Of a stretch of 14,225 bases of DNA, positions 1-13,536 are shown one piece after another. Each line of letters opens with the position of its first letter. Positions within the stretch are counted from its first letter, which is position 1. The position numbers and the translations under genes are program-made. This stretch comes from Paraspadella gotoi. Taxonomy: Eukaryota; Animalia; Chaetognatha. The stretch spans positions 1 to 14,225 of the forward strand of contig JBJCIZ010000055.1 in the NCBI GenBank assembly GCA_051294375.1, written 5' to 3'. The notes beneath the pieces were generated by a model. That model saw only the letters and a program-made list of their open reading frames with translations. It had not been told where the DNA came from and did not search any database.

Positions 1-733
1 GGAGAGATAATTTACACGGTAGGGCAGAGATGATATAAAAGAAACAAAAAAAGTGCCATCTTGGAAACCTGCAAAATTTTAAAGTACACTACTATGAGGC
101 ACTCCCTGTGATAGGTTTAGCAAATTCCGGTACCTCTGAACCAAGAACTTAATTTTTACAAATGTCACATAAAATTCTATTGATATACATCAAACATTAT
201 CTACGCGACAAGAGCTTTTAATTTAAGACGCACTCTCAAGTCTCAACTTTCTACGACTTTGCATTGTTGAGTTATTTATAAAAATAACTTAATTTTACAA
301 ACAAGACAGTAATTACAATTAGGAGATGCGTCGTGTATTTTCTACATCTGTAATGACACGACAGTAATAGGGTGACACAGAATTACCCTTTTAGGAAGCA
401 GGAAGATTGTTTTAAAACTCTCTCTCTTTTTTTTTCATAGAGAAAAACGGACATGTGTCGGCTTTAATATTTCAATCCTTCATATTATGAAAAATTGCAA
501 GATTACTTGTTTTACTATATTAACTGCTAGGCGACCACTGGGCTAAAACCCCAGACCTCTGGGTTTGGTGGCGAAGGACTTGCCTCTGGCACCCATTGAT
601 GAACGGTTGGTAGATTTTAGTCCACTATAATTTCTTTAAATCTCAAAACAACGATAAAGAAAATATTATAACGCAGTATAATTCTAAAAATTTGTAATTT
701 GTCCTACCTATTATTAATGTATAACCAGCAAAT

Positions 734-2087: not shown

Positions 2088-2355
2088 TGAAGAGGCTGGT
2101 TTTACAGGGCGCCACACCCGCAGCGGTGTCACCTCGTGGGACAGCGAGACAGCATGTTCATGTAGTCCAGAGCTTTGGATCTGGCAGTAGGCCCATGCCT
2201 ACAGGCGGGTTACCCGGTCCATCCCACTTTCTACATGACAACCTCAGGGCTCGAACCAGGGACGCACATTGGGATGGTGCATTAGTCCACTGAGCCACTG
2301 AGGCGCTGCGAAAGAAACAGCTTTAATCCATCTGTGGTGATAGGACCACCAGACA
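2088..2355 (-). repeat. TRIM 3' LTR
   Basis: Minus strand (TG)TCTGGTGG...CTCTTCA, preceded by GGGGGCGGC. Confidence 0.9.
2247..2297 (-). promoter_or_regulatory. Pol III type-2 internal promoter (A and B box) in the 3' LTR
   Basis: A box TGGCTCAGTGG (2297-2287), B box GGTTCGAGCCC (2257-2247), starts 40 nt apart; enclosed by a GCCTCAG/CTGAGGT stem. Confidence 0.72.
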
Positions 2356-2364
2356 GCCGCCCCC
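2356..2364 (-). promoter_or_regulatory. Polypurine-tract-like sequence of the TRIM
   Basis: GGGGGCGGC immediately 5' of the 3' LTR on the minus strand. Confidence 0.7.
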
Positions 2365-2512
2365 AGGACTCTCACATATGAGAGTACGAAGTAGGGGATG
2401 AAGCGCATGTCTCTCCGCTGAACCTCTCTTCATTCTGGTGGCCTTTGCGTTGAGTGGCAGCTTGCGTAGCTCAAACCACATCAAGGGCAGAGGAGTATTA
2501 TCATGCCCGGTT

Positions 2513-2543
2513 GGTTGCGTGTTCGTATCACGTCGGCTCACCA
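2513..2543 (-). promoter_or_regulatory. Extended primer-binding site complementary to the tRNA-Trp 3' end
   Basis: Plus strand GGTTGCGTGTTCGTATCACGTCGGCTCACCA versus the metazoan tRNA-Trp 3' end as I recall it, GGTTGCGTGTTCRAATCACGTCGGGGTCACCA. Confidence 0.88.
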
Positions 2544-2544
2544 T

Positions 2545-2812
2545 TGAAGAGGCTGGTTTACAGGGCGCCACACCCGCAGCGGTGTCACCTCATGGGGACA
2601 GCGAGACAGCATGTTCATGTAGTTCAGAGCTTTGGATCTGGCAGTAGGCCAATGCCTACAGGCGGGTTACCCGGTCCATCCCACTTTCTACATGACAACC
2701 TCAGGGCTCGAAACCAGGGACGCACATTGGGATGGTGCATTAGTCCACTGAGCCACTGAGGCGCTGCGAAAGAAACAAGCTTTAAATCATCTGTGGTGAT
2801 AGGACCACCAGA
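2545..2812 (-). repeat. TRIM 5' LTR
   Basis: Minus strand TCTGGTGG...CTCTTCA, followed after 1 nt by TGGTGAGCCGACGTGAT. Confidence 0.9.
2704..2755 (-). promoter_or_regulatory. Pol III A/B box in the 5' LTR
   Basis: A box TGGCTCAGTGG 2755-2745; B box GGTTTCGAGCCC 2715-2704 (one extra T versus the other LTR); TTTAAA at 2781-2786 upstream. Confidence 0.62.
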
Positions 2813-3513
2813 TAACTACTTTTTAAAAAAAAACATGCCTTTACCGGAATTTGCTAACCTATCACAGGGAGTGCCTCATAGGTGTACTTTAAAATTTTTC
2901 AGGTTTCCAAAGATGGCACTTTTTTTGTTTCTTTTATATCATCTCTATATCGTCGGCGTCACGCTGTTTTATATATACAAGTTTGAGGCAAACAATGTCG
3001 GATCTGCCTACGATAATTAATTAATTAATAGATTAATTAATTAATTAATTTTAATAATTAATTATAATTTATATTCAGGCCTTGTCATCAATCGATGTCC
3101 TTAAAATTGAGGTCAGGACAGTTATTAAATGTTTTGTTTACATTTATCAAAACAACAAATATCCTCTATTATCGAGCCAGGCGGGCAAAGCCCGTCCTGG
3201 CTAGATTTTGATTCGGTTAGCTTTCGGTCACGCTTTTTTGCAATCATGGCTTCTGAAAGTGTGATATCATAGGGAGTTGAAATTTCATATATGGCTTCTA
3301 AGATCAAGATCTTTAAATTCTGATGTTTCATATCAATATTCGTATTTGTTTATGTTTTATTTACAAAACAAAAACGTTTTAATTATATGTCGCTCTCTCT
3401 CTCTCTTTCTTTTAAATATATGTCGCTCTCTCTCTCTCTCTTTTTCTCCGTCACTGCTTCTTCTGATTTGTCTAAAAACGAGTTCCGGCTCTGCAGCGTC
3501 TGTCCAGCTTCTT

Positions 3514-3544
<31 letters not shown>

Positions 3545-3585
3545 TTACAAAAAAATTTTTAGATATAATGTGGGCTCACTAATGT

Positions 3586-3668
3586 AAAAAAACGATGCCG
3601 CGAACAGGGTGCGAACCCGGGTCCTTTAGGTAGAGAACAACTCACTCTACGTCCGGCGCCATAGTTAC
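3586..3668 (-). ncRNA. tRNA-derived Pol III-like unit (pseudo-tRNA / SINE head)
   Basis: Minus strand TGGCGCCGGAC (A-like, 3661-3651), GGTTCGCACCC (B-like, 3617-3607), hairpin GTAGAG/CTCTAC, T7 run at 3592-3586; no proper cloverleaf. Confidence 0.55.
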
Positions 3669-3900
3669 TACTGATTCTTTAACGAGTAAAGGGGCTGTAG
3701 AGCTTCTCTCTCTCTCTTTTAATTATTATATATCGCTCTTTCTCTCTCTCTTTTTCTCTGCAGCGGCTGTCTCTCTCTCTCTCTTTTTCTCTCTGTGTGT
3801 TTGTCCCTCTCTGTCCGATCTCTATTACCATTTATTCCGCGCTTTTTTTCAATACAAAAATCCCATATTTTCATCCGAGATTTTCGTGGATTATTCTCTT

Positions 3901-3938
<38 letters not shown>

Positions 3939-3961
3939 ATACGCGCATTTGTTTGTTTTAT

Positions 3962-4147
3962 TGACTATCATCGCATTAATGAATGACAATCATCGCATCA
4001 GTGAATGACTATCATCACAGCAGTGAATGACTATCATCGCATCAATAATTGATTATCATCGAATCAATAATCCAATTACTATTACATCAATAAATTACTA
4101 TTTACATCAATCAATTAGTATTACCTCAATCAATTACTATTACATCA
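3962..4147. repeat. Minisatellite: ~22-bp units (GACTATCATCGCATCAGTGAAT) grading into ~19-bp units (ATTACTATTACATCAATCA)
   Basis: Tandem units read directly. Confidence 0.85.
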
Positions 4148-4263
4148 TAATTCGTTATCGCATGTTTCATTCGTTTTTTTTTTCCGGTTTTTTTCATTAA
4201 TTTTCTTTGATAGTGGGCTCTGGCTCGATCTTGAGTCTTTTAAGATTTTTTTATTTTATGTCT

Positions 4264-4303
<40 letters not shown>

Positions 4304-5109
4304 ATGCAATAGCGACGATCCTTATGCTTTTAAGATTTTTTTAACTTGCATCATTTTTCAACTTGCATCATTTTTTCAACTTGCATTCCGTCAAAACTTT
4401 ATATCTAGCTTCTTCACTCACTTTCCTACTGGCTCACAAATTTCATCTCAATCTATCATGGTTAAAATAAATAAAAAGATTCAAGTAAATGTGACTCATA
4501 TTTTTTTCATTTAAACTCATTTCCACTGGTACGTTTCTACTGAAACTTTATATCAAGCTTCGTCACACATTTTCCTACCCACACACAAAATTTCAACTCA
4601 ATCTATCCATCCAATTATGATTAATTAGAGTATTTATTGGTTAAAATAAGTAAAAAGATTTTAGTAAATTCGACTTATGTTTTTTCCATTTAAACTAATT
4701 TCCACTCACACGATTCCATCGAAACTTTATATCCAGCTTTATAACACACTTCCTACTTACACACAAAATTTAATTCCAATCCAACCAGCCAATCACGAGT
4801 TATTGGAGCTTTTTGCTAAGATGGGACGGACGGATGGATGGACGGACGGACGGACGGACGGACATCATTTTTTTTGCATAATTTATCATAATTCGATGTT
4901 CTGACATGATATAAGTGTGTGCCCGACAATATTGAGGGGGCAGACCGACGGACCGACAAAGTGAGTTATAGAGTCGGATATGCTGATAAGCAGATCCGAC
5001 TAAAAACTACTACGCTTTTATAGGTTTGGCTGTGACTTACCGTTTTTTTTAAAATAAAAATTATTATGAATTATGATAAAGTTTTACAAAAGTGTGCGAT
5101 CATAGTAAG

Positions 5110-5399
5110 TTAAAAATTTAGATATGGCTTCTCATCTTGAATAGCTTTGATATTTTCCTATTACATTTGGATTTAAGTATTTTTTGTTTGAATTTCCACT
5201 TCATTATTATTTACTGCAATATGCAAATGAGATTATAGTACTCATTATAATATCCAAATTAGTATATAGAAATGCTTTAATCTAATTTACATATTGCAGT
5301 ATATAATATTGAAGATGAAATTCAAAATTTTTTTTTAATCTATAATAAAAATGGGAACTCAAAATAACTTTTTAATGAGAAGCTATATCTTAATTTTAA
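5110..5399. repeat. Diverged AT-rich foldback (MITE-like)
   Basis: AAAATTTAGATATGGCTTCTCAT (5113-5135) vs ATGAGAAGCTATATCTTAATTTT (5375-5397); inner arms TTGAATTTC...ACTGCAATATG vs CATATTGCAGT...GAAATTCAA. Confidence 0.75.
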
Positions 5400-5529
5400 T
5401 ACAAATAAAAATAAAATCTTTTAGAAGCTGCGATTGGAAAAAAATTGGAAAAATTTCCAATTGTAAGCAATTGTAACATATTTTTGCCTTTCTTTTATTT
5501 CTTTAAATTATATATATATTTTTTGCTTT

Positions 5530-5995
5530 TTTAGAAAAGACGAGTTCAGGCTCTGGAGTGATTGTACAGCGGCCTTCCAGCAGCTGTCCAGCTTTGTCTC
5601 TCTTTCTCTCTCTCTCTCTTTCTGTCTCTTTCTCTCTTTACGATCTCTTGCGTGATCGTTCGTTTTTTGAAAAATTCTGATTATTTTTTTCCTTCTAAAA
5701 CTTTATTATCGCCATTTATTCCACGCTTTTTTTTTTCAATACAAAATCCCAAATTTATATCTGAGATTTTCGTGGATTTTTTTGAGAAAATGTGAAGAAT
5801 AACTTACTTGACCTGGATTTCGTGGCCGTTGCAGGGCAACGAGTAAACAATGTCAAGGAACATGACCTAAAACGCGTTTTGATGGCAACGGAAACGTTAC
5901 GTGTATAAAAGGATCAACTTGACCAAGATCACGCCGCCGTTGCGAGGCAACGGATAACCGATATAATTGGAAAGAAATTCGGTTTTTCTTTTCTT

Positions 5996-6026
<31 letters not shown>

Positions 6027-6455
6027 GATTATTTTTTCCTTCTATAAACTTTTATTATCACCATTTATTCCGCGCTTTTTTTTTCATACAAAATCCCAAA
6101 TTTATATTTGAGATTTTCGTGGATTTTTTTGAGTAAATGTGAAGAATAACTTACTTGACCTGGATTTCGTGGCCGTTGCAGGGCAACGAGTAAACAATGT
6201 CAAGGAACATGACCTCATAACGCGTTTCGCGTTCTCTCTCTCTCTCTGTCTCTCTCTCTCTCTCTCTTTTTACAAAAAAAAAATTTATTCACTTTTTTTT
6301 TCACCACCGTCATTAGAAAAAGACGAGTCTTGCGTGATCGTTCGTTTTTTGAAAAATTCTGATTATTTTTTTCCTTCTAAAAACTTTTATTATTGCCATT
6401 TATTCGCGCTTATTTCCCAAATTTACATCTGAGATTTTCGTTGATTTTTTTGAGT
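5530..6455 (+). repeat. Repeat-derived segment related to the family-2 interior, with ~340-bp tandem duplication
   Basis: Block TGATTATTTTTTCCTTCTA...GAGATTTTCGT recurs at ~5678, ~6026 and ~6360 and resembles 3830-3895; (CT)n tracts in between. Confidence 0.75.
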
Positions 6456-7323
6456 TATGACGGCTGTTTTACAAATATCCTGCTCTGCTACAGGTACTTG
6501 ATGGTAGCCTTTACAAAGGTCTACTTTTGAAAAAATTGTTTTGCCTGCGACATGTGCGTTGAAATCCATTAAATTTTTGATGGGGTAGCGGTTGTCTTTT
6601 GTGACTGCGTTGAGGCGCCTGTAGTCGCCGCAACAACTAAGTGAGCCGTCAGGTTTTTTAACCACATGTAGTGGTGATGCCCAAGCACTCTTGCTCTTCC
6701 GTATAATGCCCAGCTTCTCCATTTTTGCAAATTCTTCTTTGGCTGCTTTGAGTTTGTCAGGTGCAAGTCGGCGTGCTTGGGGTGGACAGGCGGACCCTCG
6801 GTTGGAATGTGGTGTTCTACACCATGCTTGGTCTTCGAAGGGTCAAATCTGAGTTGTGTGAGTTCTGGGCGTTCGTCAATCAATTTGAAATAGGCATTAT
6901 TGACTGTATTGACTCTGAAAGGCCTGTCCAGGTAAGATTTGCCTGCGATTGTTGAAAAATCATCAAGATCCACGAGTAGGCCGAGCTTGTGGTCGGCGGC
7001 TAAATGATGCTCCATCAGAAAATCAGCTCCAAGAATAGGGGTCGTAACGTCAGCGAGTACGGTTGTTAGTGAGTATGTGCGTCTTCCTAGTCTGATAGTG
7101 ATTTGTTTGGTGCCGTAGGAAGAGATTGGAGACCCATTTGCAGCATGAAGTTGAGGCGCGGAGCCCCGCGGAGCTTTTCTGATGGCGAAGGCGCCATCAA
7201 GGTGACGCTTGCACCACCGTCCACAAGCCATGCCAAGTTGTTGTTGTCGTACACGTGCAGTAAGGGCTCTGTACAACTAGCAGCGGCGTTTACTGCCTCC
7301 GGCTGCTGGCTCGGCCGTTTCCC
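6452..7323 (-). pseudogene. pol: pol fragment: aspartic protease and N-terminal reverse transcriptase, two frameshifts, truncated before YXDD
   Basis: WLVDGGASVTL...AANGSPISSYG...PILGADFL; HHIPTEGPPV; LGIIRKSKSAWASPLHVVKKPDGS..CGDYRRLNAVT..RYP..FSKVDLCKGYHQVPV..DICKTAVIT. Frame changes near 7170 and 6778. Confidence 0.93.
7279..7323 (-). promoter_or_regulatory. Programmed -1 ribosomal frameshift signal (G GGA AAC plus downstream stem-loop)
   Basis: GGGAAAC at 7323-7317 is in the gag phase (CGG GGA AAC); the -1 frame opens into protease; stem AGCAGC/GCTGCT with inner GGC/GCC begins ~9 nt downstream. Confidence 0.8.
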
Positions 7324-8690
7324 CGCCTGCATCTTGGGTAACATTTGATTGCTCGGTCTCCAAATGTCCGATGATAGAAACAAAGTCCATTGATGAAATC
7401 AGGAGAGGAGTTGAAAGAGTTTGCAACTGGTCGGCGAGAGAAGGTAGTGCTGTTGCTGTTGTTGGGGAAACGGCGCTGTTGTGTTGTCGCTGGTCTTCGG
7501 CAGCCAGGTCGGACCTGTGTCCTGGGGCATAGTTGGCCACGTCCGGAAGTCGCGGCACACACGCTGGCGTATGTGCATGGAGGCACATCCTCTGGTGGAT
7601 GCGTCATCCGCCAAGTCGGGCGCATACTCATCGCACTCGACATGACTGACGACTTTTCCAATGGGTTTTGAGGTGATCTGAAGATCACCTTGGGCAGAGT
7701 AAAATGCGTCCGCCTTCTTGGCGATCGCTTCTGGCGTCTCGTCCCCATCGCTGACTACCCTTCCGGCCACATGGGCTGGGAGGACCTCGGCCAGGATCGC
7801 ATTGAGGAGATGGTCGATCGTCAGGGATTCGACTTCAGTGCGCAGTGCGGCCACGAACTGCGAAGGAGTGCGTCCTGCGAGGGAGTGGTGACCAAGGAGT
7901 TTTTGCGCCTTTTGCCGGGGCTTCTCGGCGAACAGCTCAGATGCTTTTTCACAGCTAGGTAACCACCAGAGACAGGGTGGTCATTGGTGTAAAAACCTCT
8001 GATCAGGACCTGGTGCTCCTGTGGTACTGCGCCTAGAAGGTGCATCTTTTTGTGCTGCTCATCCACAACTGCAGCGAGGCGGAAACTCCCCTCGACAGCA
8101 GCAAGCCAGGCTCTGATGTTGCCGACATCAAAAGGCGGCAGCTTAGGCGTCTTGGACCGGTTGGTGCTTGGCGCCTGGTAGTCCATTGGTACGGTGGAGG
8201 CTCCTACCGCGTCGACGTTGTCTGGGTGTTATTGACCTGCGAACTGGCATAATCTTTGACTAAGGTCGCCTGTGGACCTGTGTGGCATCGCCGGTGGTGC
8301 CTGCTGAGCTGCTAGCAGGCGTTGGAGGGTTGATGTGAGGTACTCAATTGAGGACCTCACGCTCTCATTGAAGCTTTCTTGCTTTGCCTCCAATCCCAGA
8401 ATCCTGTTGTTGAAAGACTGGATCAGCCCGTTTGATGACCCTGGTACGGTCCTGAAGGAACCGACGTTGGATCGGGGGGGCGTAATCACGCTCTTGACTT
8501 TGGTCTGGTCACCGCGTGGCGTCTTGAAGGCGTCGTCCTGTTCCGGCGATGGTGGCGGCGATGAGATCGGGGTGGGGGGTGTGACAACGTCCTCCATGCG
8601 GCGTCGTTTGAAGTTTTCCGCTGAAGGCGAGGTGGAGGCGCGGCGGGTTCCGCATCCGTGAGGGGCCTCCATATCGAGCAGATGTTCCAT
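7290..8690 (-). pseudogene. gag: gag with long N-terminal extension; one in-frame stop (8229-8231) and two frame disruptions
   Basis: Pieces 8690-8229, 8186-~7940, ~7940-~7600 and ~7600-7290; KLPPFDVGNIRAWLAAVEGSF, RTPSQF, AKKADAF and the C-terminal CHCC motif. Confidence 0.82.
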
Positions 8691-9600
8691 GATCGTAGAG
8701 ACTGCTGATTGTAAAAAAAAATAAAAATTCACTAATTCTGCACCGAACAGAAAATTTCGATCTCGGCAGCATAAAATTAAATGATATTACTCATTTGACT
8801 TACATAAAATTTTTGATGGCCTGAGGAGTATAACGCGTTTAACTATAGCTCATGCAGGATGACGCTAATTTTTTTTTAAAATCTGATGAATAAAAATTCT
8901 CTGTAAAGAAAAAAAAAACTTTTTTGAAGGTCTCAAGTTTTTAATCGTATTTTCTTAGCTTACCGTCTAAAAAAATAAAGATGACCTGATCCAAAGTCTA
9001 AAAGTTATTATTCCGAAATTTGATCATTGACCTTTAACGTTCTCGTCGAAAAGATACTATAAATACTTAAAACAGATTTTTAGAGCATTGTCTATGGCTG
9101 ACTCCCTATAGCCCTTAAACGTTTATAAAATTAAACCTCGGAAAATTCTCTGACAAAACTGTTTAAACGGCGCGGTAAAATGAAAAACGCGTTGGCGAGA
9201 CGGTCATTCACGATACCGTAAGTTAAACTGTAATTAAATTAAATGGACGAAAATTGATTAGGATTAGTATCGTAACTCAAAACCTCAAAGTTAAACCAAA
9301 TACAAATCGTTGAAAACTCCTAAAAAAAAATATTTAGAACTGAGAGCCTTTTGACTGCGGTTAATCCGGGTAGCGAATGCCGAAATGTTGGACGTTGGAA
9401 AAGACGCGCGCGACTGAGAAAAATAGAAATTGCGAAAATTGGCTGATGGCGAAATAGACCGTTAAACTGAGTGAATCTTCTTCACTAATTCAACCGCCTA
9501 TTTACAATTGATAAATAAAATAATTGATCAATCACTCGATCAATCAAATCATAAACCAATCGATCAGCGTCAGTAAAAATCAGAAGGTTACTTATCTTAA

Positions 9601-9613
9601 GTCGGGATCACCA
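9601..9613 (-). promoter_or_regulatory. tRNA-Trp primer-binding site
   Basis: TGGTGATCCCGAC one nt after the LTR end TACA; complement of the tRNA-Trp 3' end with one G:U pair. Confidence 0.88.
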
Positions 9614-9614
9614 A

Positions 9615-9873
9615 TGTAGAAGACGAAAATAATAATAATAAATTGTGACGATGTAAGAGAAGTAGAAAAGAAGTGAGACTAGCTCTCTCCTGATTCACTT
9701 TTATAATCGCCCGAACCAACTTGACCTTACGGTCGCCACGGCCCTATTACTGTGTCCGGTCAATCTAAGGTCATTGCCAAAGCTAAGGCAAAGTGACCGT
9801 GTGGAATAGACCGGCTCGAAGAAAGAGGAGAGAGGAAGGGTTTAGAGAGAGAGACCGGTGGTAAGTCGCCTCA
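9615..9873 (-). repeat. 5' LTR of the CsRn1-like element (~259 bp)
   Basis: Ends TACA at 9618-9615; TATAAAA at 9705-9699; TG start at 9873 inferred from the junction with HINE sequence (no second LTR to confirm). Confidence 0.7.
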
Positions 9874-11677
9874 CTTGCATCATTTTTTCACATTAATTAA
9901 TTAATTATTTAATTAAAACATTTATTAGTAATCATTAATATTAAAGATTCAAGTAAATGTGACTTATGTTTTTTCCATCTAAACTCATTTACACTGGCAC
10001 AATTCCGTCAAAACTTTATATAATTATTATATATGCAACGATCCTTATGCTCATTTTTCTGCTCGCTCTCTCTCTCTCTCTCTCTTTGCAATTGCGACGA
10101 TCCTTATGCTTTTAGGATTTTTTTAACTTGCATCATTTTTCTGCTTGCATCATTTTTTCACATTAATTAATTAATTAAAAATTTGTATTAATAACCTCTA
10201 TCTAACTTTTAAAGCTCTATCAGAATCTATTAAAAAAAATTGAAAATTTAAAAAAAATTTTCAACTTTATATAGTAATTAAATAATTTTTAAATGCTTCT
10301 GTGATAAATTTTAAAAATTATTTTCATTTTCATTATCTCTAACAGTCACTTAACCATTATTTATTTGAGAGAACTTCTAGTTTTCAACCTGTTCCGGCCT
10401 ACTGATTAATTAATTATTGATTAATTAATTGACTAATTGATTAATTAACTGATTAATTATTTCATTTATTAATACATCCTGCATATACATTTAATATAAA
10501 AGGAAAAAGAATCATAATCAATTAGTGAAACAGGTTTTTTGTTTTTTTCCATTTAAACTCATTTCCACTCAAAAGATTCCATCGAAACTTGGTTTCCTGT
10601 TTAATCACACACTTTTCTACTCACATACAAAATTCCAGGTCAATCGATAATTAAGTGGTAATAAGCTAACTTGGTCAACTTGCATAATTTAATCAATTTG
10701 CATAATTTGGTCAACTGACATAATATGGTTAACTGACATAATTTGGTCTACTGACATAATTTGGTCAACTGACATAATTTGATCAATTAAGATAATTTGG
10801 TCAACCGGCATAATTTGGTCAACTGGCATAATTTTATTAACTGGCCTAATTTGGTCAACTGGCATAATTTGGTCAACAGGCATAATTTGGTCAACTTGCA
10901 GAACTTGATCAACTTGCAGAATTTGGTCAACTGGCATATTTTTGTCAATTGGCATAATTTGTCAATCAATCAATCAATCAATCAGAGAGAGATAGAGAGA
11001 GAGAAACTTTAAAAAATTCAAATAAATGTGTCTTTTGGTTTTCTAATTTGAACTCTTTTCCCCTCCTACAATTCCATCAAAAAATTTATATCCAGCTTCA
11101 TCACATACTTTCCTACCCACACACAAAATTCAATTTCGATTTATCTGTCCAATTTTTAATAAACATAATAATTATGAGTAAATTTAAGTAAAAATACTTC
11201 AAGTAAATATGACTTTTGTTTTTTTCCATTTTAACTCGTTTCCACTCGCACGATTCCATCGAAACTTTATATCCAACTCAATCACACACTTTCCTACCAT
11301 CATACAAAATTTCAAGTCAATTGCCCTATCCACTCATGAGCAATTGGCGTTCAAATAGTGAAATATATTTTTTTGTTTTTTCCATTTAAACCAATTTCCA
11401 CTCGCACGATTCCCTCGAAACTTCATATCCATCTCAATCACACAGTTTCCTACCCACACACAAGATTTCATACCAATCCATCCATCCAATCACGAGTAAT
11501 TGGAGTTTTTTGCTAAGGTGGGACGGACGGACGGACGGACGGACGGACAGACGGACGGACGTACATAGTTTTTTTTGCATAATTAATCATAATTCGATGT
11601 TCTGACATGATATAAGTGTGTGCCCGACAATATTGAGGGGGCGGACCGACGGACCGACAAAGTGAATTATAGAGTCG
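9874..11677 (-). mobile_element. HINE family 1 copy lacking the 5' hairpin
   Basis: 11380-11677 aligns with 4680-4976; (GTCC)n at 11521-11560; the same central repeats and ACTTGCATCATTTTT / GCGACGATCCTTATGC blocks as 4287-4385. Confidence 0.78.
10671..10960. repeat. 18-bp minisatellite (TTGGTCAACTGGCATAAT)n
   Basis: Tandem units read directly; inverted copy at 13210-13525. Confidence 0.95.
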
Positions 11678-11734
11678 ACAACTTTTTATACTAAAAAAAA
11701 TCAAATTTGAGAAAAGAAAATTAATTTATAAACA

Positions 11735-12410
11735 AAGAAAAAGAAGAAAAGAATAAATATAAAGAAAGAATAGAAAGGAAAGAAAGAAAAGAAAGGAAAG
11801 AAAGAAAAGAAAGAAAAAAAAATAAGAGAAAAAAAAGAAAGGAAAGAAAGAAAAGAAAAAAAAGAAAGAAGAGAAAAAAAAGAAAGAAAAGAAAGGAAAG
11901 AAAGAATAGAAAGGAAAGAAAGAATAGAAAGGAAAGAAAGAATAGAAAGGAAAGAAAGAATAGAAAGGAAAGAAAGAATAGAAAGAAAAGGAAAGAAAAA
12001 ATAGAAAGAAAAGAAAAGAAAGAATAGAAAGGAAAGAAAAAATCGAAAGGAAAGAAAAAATAGAAAGGGAAAAAAAATAGGAAGTAAAGGAAAAATAAAA
12101 AGGAAAGAAAGAATAGAAAGAAAAGAAAAAATAAAAAGGAAAGAAAAAATTGAAAGGAAAGAAAAAATTGAAAGGAAAGAAAGAATAGAAAGGAAAGAAA
12201 AAATAGGAAGGAAAGAAAGAATAGAAAGGAAAGAAAGAATAGAAAGGAAAGAAAGAATAAAAATGAAAGAAAGAATAGAAAGGAAAGAAGGAATAAAAAT
12301 GAAGAAAGAATAGAAAGGAAAGAAAAAATAGAAAGGAAAGAAAGATTAGAAAGGAAAGAAAGAATAGAAAGGAAAGAAAGAATAGAAAGGAAAAAAGAAA
12401 AATAAAAATA
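11735..12410. repeat. Purine-rich 18-bp minisatellite (AAAGAAAGAATAGAAAGG)n
   Basis: ~680 bp almost purely A/G on the plus strand with 18-nt period. Confidence 0.95.
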
Positions 12411-12509
12411 GAGAGAGTGACGAGAAGAAAGAACGAAATAAAAACCTGATGTTGCGATAGCAAAATGATAACATGCACAAATGCGAAGCCTAATTTTATG
12501 AGTTCAATC

Positions 12510-13174
12510 CTCTATAATTCACTTTGTCGGTCCGTCGGTCCGCCCCCTCAATATTGTCGGGCACATACTTATATTATGTCAGAACATCGAATTATGATAA
12601 ATTATGCAAAAAAAAACGATGTCCGTCCGTCCGTCCGTCCCACCTTAGCAAAAAACTCCAATTACTCGTGATTGGATGGATGGATTGGTATGAAATTTTG
12701 TGTGTGGGTAGGAAACTGTGTGATTGAGATGGATATGAAGTTTTGAGGGAATCGTGCGAGTGGAAATTGGTTTAAATGGAAAAAACAAAAAAATATATTT
12801 CACTATTTGAACGCCAATTGCTCATGAGTGGATAGGGCAATTGACTTGAAATTTAGTATGATGGTAGGAAAGTGTGTGATTGAGCTGGATATAAAGTTTC
12901 GATGGAATCGTGCGTGTAGAAATGAGTTAAAATGGAAAAAACAAAAGTCATATTTACTTGAAGTATTTTTACTTAAATTTACTCATAATTATTATGTTTA
13001 TTAAAAATTGGATAGATAATTCGAAATTGAATTTTGTGTGTGGGTAGGAAAGTATGTGATAAAGCTGGATATAAATTTTTTGTTGGAATCGTAGGAGTGG
13101 AAAAGAGTTCAAATTAGAAAACCAAAAGACGCATTATTTGAATTTTTTAAAGTTTCTCTCTCTTTATCTCTCTC

Positions 13175-13213
<39 letters not shown>

Positions 13214-13536
13214 CCAAATTATGCCAATTGACAAAAATATGCCAGTTGACCAAATTCTTAAAGTTGACCAAATTATGCCAGTTGACCAAATTCTGCAAGT
13301 TGATCAAGTTCTGCAAGTTGACCAAATTAGGCCAGTTGATAAAATTATGCCAGTTGACCAAATTATGCCGGTTGACCAAATTATCTTAATTGATCAAATT
13401 ATGTCATTTGACCAAATTATGTCAGTTGACCAAATTATGTCAGTAGACCAAATTATGTCAGTTAACCAAATTATGTCAGTTGACCAAATTATGCAAGTTG
13501 ATTAAATTATGCAAGTTGACCAAGTTAGCTTATTAC
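12510..13536 (+). mobile_element. HINE family 1 copy, inverted relative to 10658-11674, interrupted at 13537
   Basis: Reverse complement of 10658-11674 throughout, including (GTCC)n, central repeats, (ATTG)n and the 18-bp minisatellite. Confidence 0.85.
13210..13525. repeat. 18-bp minisatellite (TTGACCAAATTATGCCAG)n
   Basis: Tandem units read directly. Confidence 0.95.

Follow-up and report, generated by a model that had tools for sequence, protein, structure and literature searches.

A probably new family of Helenus-kind TRIM with tRNA-like LTR segments and an extended tRNA-Trp primer-binding site

Helenus (TRIMp3) was described by Kojima (2024, Biology 13:119; PMC10886601), in the sections of that paper available, as TRIMs with tRNA-derived sequence in their LTRs, with hosts among fungi, one plant and six animal phyla. 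Its animal members have 4-bp TSDs and Gypsy-type primer-binding sites (PBSs), with tRNA-Trp among the primers, and Pol III activity is presented in these sections as validated for Cassandra only and unvalidated for Helenus (PMC10886601). A meeting report that appeared since 2024 does no more than cite the Helenus paper in the part of its text available. For the 14,225-nucleotide stretch of DNA analysed here (the window), an earlier note had proposed a TRIM whose LTRs each carry a tRNA-type promoter motif, which is right; it had also held such an element to be undescribed, which is wrong, since Helenus/TRIMp3 was published in 2024 with animal members that have 4-bp TSDs (PMC10886601). Its observation of the element anatomy is confirmed and its interpretation is partly supported; two features that it had not noted are the TC start of both LTRs and a PBS of 31 nt.

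The element is a non-coding TRIM of 725 bp at 2088–2812 (element features, like those of the neighbouring Gypsy, are on the minus strand unless stated otherwise). Its 5′ LTR (2545–2812, 268 bp) and 3′ LTR (2088–2353, 266 bp) both have TC at the start and CA at the end, and align with 260 matches, five mismatches and four one-base gaps over 269 columns (96.7% identity), in line with the two LTRs of about 266 bp first reported; the internal part is 191 bp. One-base changes in run length, which may be assembly errors, make up most of the differences that separate the two LTRs from each other and the window from the contigs described below. GC content of the TRIM is 55%, in a window with mostly 25–40%. 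The TSD TAAC, also recorded earlier, is found in the flanks on the plus strand at 2084–2087 (left) and 2813–2816 (right), with a probability of 0.007 for a chance four-of-four match given the flank composition, and is seen at one copy only. None of the three internal ORFs of at least 80 aa had a Pfam match, which upholds the view that the element has no credible coding capacity. The polypurine tract that had been claimed has a candidate at 2356–2373 with a G5 core, but it is weak, at 13 purines out of 20. The TRIM lies inside an AT-rich piece of ~54 bp, with TA on both sides, within a repeat of ~270 bp (1902–2058 and 2842–2946), and an uninterrupted paralog of this host repeat, at window positions 26–296, is without the ~54-bp piece.

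Neither LTR starts with TG, and a TG directly precedes the 3′ LTR at 2355–2354. We considered TG..CA ends with a mutated 5′ TG and rejected them, as only a 2-bp duplication would remain; a TG/TA reading of the LTR ends gives no 4-bp TSD. In another copy, from sequencing run X5 (one among the 32 pieces listed), the match is lost at 2353 and the sequence beyond is unrelated. The TC start is most likely an ancestral TG end that was trimmed two bases too far. In the available part of the published Helenus consensus set (Data S1; PMC10886601), no LTR starts with TC and eight start with TA.

The PBS starts one base after the CA end of the 5′ LTR. Its canonical part (2527–2543) is the complement of tRNA-Trp positions 76–59, with one G fewer than in other copies, where this G is present (in loose ends in runs X1 and X2 and in the letters at joints in X5). 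Position 2526 stands opposite tRNA position 58 (m1A58) and, read in tRNA sense, is T here, G in other copies and A in the tRNA gene; beyond it, 13 of 13 bases (2513–2525) are complementary to tRNA-Trp positions 57–45, in the T arm and variable loop. The PBS thus has 31 nt and matches tRNA-Trp from position 76 to 45, 14 nt beyond the usual 18, with position 58 as the sole substitution in 32 columns. Compared with a eukaryotic tRNA-Trp gene (locus L012), 27 of 29 columns agree and CCA follows, a score that none of 2,000 shuffles reaches, so that the PBS claimed in the earlier note stands as a tRNA-Trp complement next to the 5′ LTR.

The published definition of Helenus asks for a TRIM of less than about 1 kb with two LTRs and no protein, as found here at 725 bp, and the PBS, the 4-bp TSD of animal members (from one copy here) and the LTR boxes (with an extra T in the 5′ B box) are found as well. 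The TG/TA..CA ends usual in published Helenus, which are outside the stated definition, are replaced by the TC start. Judged by sequence, the TRIM conforms to the definition of Helenus. An exact search with six 10- or 11-mers of the TRIM gave no match in the available part of the published Helenus set, in a search by short words from which line breaks can hide matches, and five sequence words of the TRIM had no occurrence in the literature searched. Since it shares no words with the published set, the TRIM probably represents a new family of Helenus kind.

By pattern matching, the 3′ LTR has an A box, TGGCTCAGTGG, at 2287–2297 and an intact B box, GGTTCGAGCCC, at 2247–2257, with 40 nt from A-box start to B-box start, in accordance with the spacing of about 40 nt noted earlier. 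The same A box, TGGCTCAGTGG, is found in the 5′ LTR at 2745–2755, together with a B box that, by LTR alignment, has one extra T (2704–2715), already pointed out in the earlier note and due to a mutation or an assembly error. When the 3′ LTR was dinucleotide-shuffled 20,000 times, one shuffle matched a strict A+B pattern and 28 matched a loose one, both patterns having been composed from the consensus once the sequence had been seen. Neither pattern has a match elsewhere in the window, and the 5′ LTR fails both through the extra T at 2715–2704. The Helenus box motifs, TRGCY..YGG (A) and GGTTC (B), are present in the 3′ LTR.

The resemblance to tRNA goes beyond the boxes. We delimited a tRNA-derived segment of 64–65 nt in each LTR, at 2241–2304 in the 3′ LTR (from a rod, a stem and alignment to tRNA) and at 2698–2762 in the 5′ LTR (from LTR alignment and a fold z-score of −4.5). 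The bases before the A box (2304–2298) pair fully with those after the B box (2247–2241) in an acceptor-like stem of 7 bp, which arose in 1,840 of 200,000 shuffles with the boxes held fixed. The segment is predicted to form an unbranched rod and not a cloverleaf, with fold z-scores of −4.2 (3′ LTR) and −4.5 (5′ LTR) for boundaries chosen by the analyst; a rod-like refolded tRNA head is typical of several SINE RNAs. It aligns end to end with tRNA-Arg (0 of 500 shuffles), the best of the nine tRNAs tried, three of which were equalled by fewer than 10 of 500 shuffles. It is about 8 nt shorter than a tRNA, with most of the 3′ strand of the T stem missing, and ARAGORN and Rfam do not call it as a tRNA. 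We read the box region, from its sequence, as tRNA-derived and as more than two motifs. The LTR tail folds no better than shuffles (z 0.02), three Rfam scans gave no match to 5S rRNA in the TRIM, and Rfam scans of the LTR detected neither a ribozyme nor any other RNA family. As to self-priming, the LTR match to tRNA-Trp is only 8 nt, equalled in 796 of 2,000 shuffles, and this candidate was rejected; the segment is not Trp-like and would therefore be unable to prime the PBS of the TRIM itself.

Upstream of the tRNA part, the 3′ LTR has AT-rich motifs at 2311–2327, with ATTAAA at 2327–2322 and TTTCTTT at 2317–2311. The sense strand of the TRIM lacks a T4 run, as had been stated, but this is uninformative: T4 is likewise lacking in 4,083 of 5,000 shuffles that keep dinucleotide composition and in 2,068 of 5,000 that keep mononucleotide composition, and we therefore take its absence as no evidence. 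The first T-run past the 3′ LTR is a T6 in the flank (2074–2079), the predicted Pol III stop for this copy.

Some words of the TRIM were found in ten sequencing runs from four studies, nine of these runs being from one organism and none being listed as RNA, and contigs were examined from four of the 12 runs listed (X1, X2, X5 and X9). Summed contig depth, which is not copy number, was in X1 61,000–87,000 in the 3′ LTR bins, 3,000–10,800 in the internal bins and 36–73 in two quiet flank bins; in X9, a 99-nt LTR contig identical to the window had a depth of 872, internal contigs 211 and 226, and rare contigs 2–3. On a plain reading of depth, distinct from a copy count, this is a multi-copy family with hundreds of copies and an excess of LTRs. 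X9 is only guessed to be RNA; it covers the flanking repeats as the DNA runs do and hence gives no information on expression. In X1, X2 and X5, the bins of the A and B boxes have about the depth of other LTR bins; in X9 their depth is that of the LTR-start bin and falls below that of the two tail bins. The boxes are therefore neither a free SINE nor absent from most copies, and the depth profile thus speaks against a stray SINE missing from most LTR copies, one of the outcomes that the earlier note had named as fatal to its proposal. Most depth in the B-box bin belongs to the 3′ LTR form in all four runs (in X1, 77,775 vs 17,703 for the 5′ LTR form); the common form thus lacks the extra T. Some low-depth copies are without the A- or B-box region (joints 2269–2307 and 2699–2744). 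In X1 and X5, two of the four runs, a contig of 168 nt joins 2072 to 2821 without the TRIM; it is ~93% alike and may be an allele or a paralog. A 19-mer scan of metagenomes gave two matches, both by chance and in bacterial genes.

These data also bear on the highly improbable and largely refuted reading that the two 'LTRs' are tRNA-SINE copies that flank a tRNA-Trp fragment by chance. A SINE-like layout of the LTR (a tRNA head near the 5′ end and a tail of 150 nt), an LTR depth far above the internal depth and an LTR start other than TG are all as it would predict; yet the PBS lies one base past a CA end, the weak polypurine tract lies ahead of the second repeat, a single TSD surrounds the whole unit, a tail that is A-rich or made of simple repeats is lacking, and the internal part, too, occurs in many copies.

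A candidate for the helper class lies in the same window, 3.6 kb from the TRIM and on the same strand: a broken, 3′-truncated Gypsy at 6423–9874, with an LTR remnant (about 9874–9615, CA end at 9615), a Trp PBS (9613–9601) and a CHCC motif, CX2HX9CX3C (7382–7329). DUF7041 (gag) and a partial reverse transcriptase (RVT_1) are detected in it, both below curated cut-offs; its reverse transcriptase has 1,099 relatives at E ≤ 1e-20, and the named ones labelled eukaryote are all animals. On these labels and the 4-bp TSD of the TRIM, we take the host to be an animal. The CsRn1 clade is defined by a Trp PBS, a 4-bp TSD and a CHCC gag in the available text of PMC2582038 and PMC3630058, and we assign this neighbour to it on the sequence of its Trp PBS and CHCC motif; a TSD and a GPY motif are missing from the truncated copy. 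CsRn1-clade Gypsy elements (PwRn1, AgCR, CsRn1_Cv1) share with the TRIM the tRNA-Trp PBS and the 4-bp TSD, but encode Gag-Pol, whereas the TRIM is without coding sequence (PMC2582038, PMC3630058). A CsRn1-clade Gypsy is thus a likely helper of the TRIM. The LTRs of the TRIM and of this neighbour have no similarity, and at tRNA position 70 the Gypsy PBS has T and the TRIM has G; this exact Gypsy family may therefore not be the helper.

Several other features of the window were recorded. A 185-codon proline-rich frame without Pfam match lies upstream of the Gypsy gag region (8229–8786). At 10658–13536 is a foldback-like element, in which inverted arms of 1 kb, 91% identical and with subrepeats of 18 and 156 bp, enclose a purine-rich 9/18-bp array; stretches of the arm occur again at 4468–4976. 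Nested perfect inverted repeats at 734–1125 form a MITE-like hairpin, for which all Rfam microRNA matches are below gathering scores.

Overall, we consider it likely that the element is a non-coding TRIM of Helenus kind, probably transcribed by Pol III and probably copied and inserted by proteins of CsRn1-clade Gypsy elements. The anatomy with its boxes, PBS and TSD is observed, as are the many copies and a related site that is free of the element; from these we infer the later steps as follows. TFIIIC would bind the A and B boxes of the 5′ LTR, and Pol III would initiate near 2762–2768, at the tRNA-like 5′ end; meeting no T4, it would read the PBS, the polypurine tract and the whole 3′ LTR up to the T-run in the flank (2079–2074). 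The RNA would then have ~215 nt of LTR at both ends, which would be sufficient for strand transfer. A Gypsy particle would package it, tRNA-Trp would prime, and integration would produce the 4-bp duplication. In this scheme the tRNA part, as a rod that would not prime its own PBS, would act as a promoter only, and the 14 extra PBS bases would come from plus-strand synthesis through m1A58 of the primer, with mis-incorporation there.

Transcription by Pol III is the natural reading of the LTR motifs, although ATTAAA, ~25 nt upstream, would suit Pol II too, and TTTCTTT, which directly precedes the predicted start, might end some transcripts prematurely. It is also conceivable, but unlikely in our estimation, that this is an ordinary Pol II TRIM in which the tRNA-SINE remnant of the LTR is a passenger whose boxes no longer drive full-length RNA. 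ATTAAA/TTTAAA at LTR position 27–32 suits a TATA or polyadenylation role, the 5′ B box is broken in this copy (a point against Pol III transcription of it), some low-depth copies are without one or other box region, and Pol III use is unvalidated for Helenus in the available text of PMC10886601. Against this stand the 3′ LTR boxes, both of which match the consensus (1 of 20,000 shuffles), the retention of the acceptor-like stem and the rod, and the presence of the box region in most LTR copies. On balance we prefer transcription from the internal boxes.

The long PBS has putative parallels. A scan for the PBS stretch returned 11 loci: eight phage tRNA-Ala genes, one eukaryotic tRNA-Trp gene (L012), which carries the 3′ end that the TRIM PBS complements, and two non-tRNA stretches. 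L012 (1–538) belongs to a bacterial MAG record and is a eukaryotic cluster, in which the tRNA-Trp is accompanied by 5S rRNA, tRNA-Asn and a cut tRNA. In the phage tRNA-Ala(TGC) genes (L003–L010, 258–332), the 24 bases of the variable loop and T arm are identical to those of eukaryotic tRNA-Trp. Both non-tRNA stretches are CCA-ended complements of tRNA-Trp with A58 intact, and reach position 38 in L011 (292–332; about 11110–11150 in L014) and position 44 in L013 (203–235), having been found with a pattern that demands the extension. L011 and L013 are eukaryote-like contigs in bacterial MAG records, and their PBS-like stretches are putative; BEL/Pao genes lie 3.4 kb past the L011 stretch. In the neighbouring Gypsy, a long Trp PBS is present in decayed form (9613–9579), in which a 13-nt core is followed by 11 of 11 bases of tRNA positions 48–38, an extension equalled in two of 2,000 shuffles. 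Similar long Trp PBSs thus appear to occur in three other elements, putatively in L011 and L013. Two of the other extensions (L011 and the neighbouring Gypsy) end exactly at position 38, beside G37. The G37 of tRNA is often methylated.

Within the TRIM family, position 58 (2526) is the only variant between 2463 and 2545 among the variants listed (40 of 68). By depth, the share of G there is 42% in X1, 2.5% in X2, 61% in X5 and 100% in X9, and A is found in none of the four runs among the same 40 of 68 variants. In the available text of PMC8599865, m1A58 normally halts the plus-strand copy after 18 nt, and retroviral products of read-through past it are described as dead ends; where m1A is followed by A, reading through it yields mismatches with little C (PMC4787781, text available in part). 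The alleles T and G at position 58 fit this m1A-A signature, and we think it reasonably probable that the extra PBS bases originated when a reverse transcriptase read through m1A58.

Position 58 would be no such scar if an antisense B box had been lost there (on the opposite strand, the T-arm copy reads as a B box) or if the tRNA piece had been captured once and had mutated by chance, an explanation that we regard as possible but rather unlikely. It agrees with position 58 also being an invariant B-box base (by the consensus), with the fact that one later substitution can yield both alleles and with the retention of A58 in L011 and L013. It sits less well with position 58 being both the sole substitution in 32 columns and the only listed variant of its region, with the match of both alleles to the m1A-A signature (PMC4787781, as available) and with the halt of two other extensions exactly at 38, adjoining G37.

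Taking read-through as the preferred origin of the extension, a further step, which we put forward tentatively and as doubtful, is that the PBS is re-copied from the primer tRNA in each cycle: the helper reverse transcriptase would read through m1A58, and overlong plus strands would still transfer and integrate because the T-arm complement is already present. If so, PBS position 58 would be a genomic record of tRNA modification that switches repeatedly between T and G, and LTR elements with long Trp PBSs ending at 45, 44 or 38 would form a frequent class that has been overlooked, and would tolerate the failure of the m1A58 strong stop or make use of it. A long PBS that differs just at 58 suggests that read-through products can be fixed and perhaps recycled. 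Neither a long PBS nor m1A58 read-through in retrotransposons was found in the literature searched, the coverage of which was partial, and long PBSs may well be in print; a nematode Cer element study reportedly deals with long PBSs in BEL elements.

The kind of element is already published. What is gained is a probably new multi-copy family, seemingly young, in which most copies have an intact B box and which would be well suited to the Pol III test still needed for Helenus. As far as the published descriptions are available, the TRIM shares with Helenus the tRNA-like TRGCY..YGG and GGTTC motifs in both LTRs, a PBS to a tRNA 3′ end, a size within 311–1,263 bp and likely solo LTRs. With Helenus-2_SyJa it shares the tRNA-Trp primer, but the PBS of the latter matches ~14 nt, compared to 31 nt here; coelacanth LTR1_LCh may, by eye, have a decayed longer PBS match. 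Here the tRNA part is in the first half of the LTR, followed by a 150-nt tail with no T-run, whereas in the Helenus families examined from bivalve, brachiopod, nemertean and wasp it is near the LTR 3′ end, often followed by T4–5, and in the ctenophore Helenus-1_MLe it is at the LTR 5′ end. Plant Cassandra and nemertean Ajax are likewise TRIMs whose LTRs each contain an internal Pol III promoter but differ in that theirs is 5S rRNA sequence, with no 5S match here, and Ajax further in its 5-bp TSDs and tRNA-Leu primer (PMC10886601, available sections). Two other short non-autonomous LTR elements of animals are ta-TRIM of taeniid cestodes, which has mostly 4-bp TSDs but a 9-base Leu PBS and TG..CA ends, with 'polymerase III' absent from the available text (PMC4558846), and biv-TRIM, which differs in having no canonical PBS in the part of the description available (PMC6934838). 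Finally, tRNA-derived SINEs (SINE2) also have a tRNA head with A and B boxes (PMC10886601, as available), but the TRIM has no LINE-type tail, and its head lies within a terminal direct repeat, in an element with a PBS, a weak candidate polypurine tract and a fixed short TSD.
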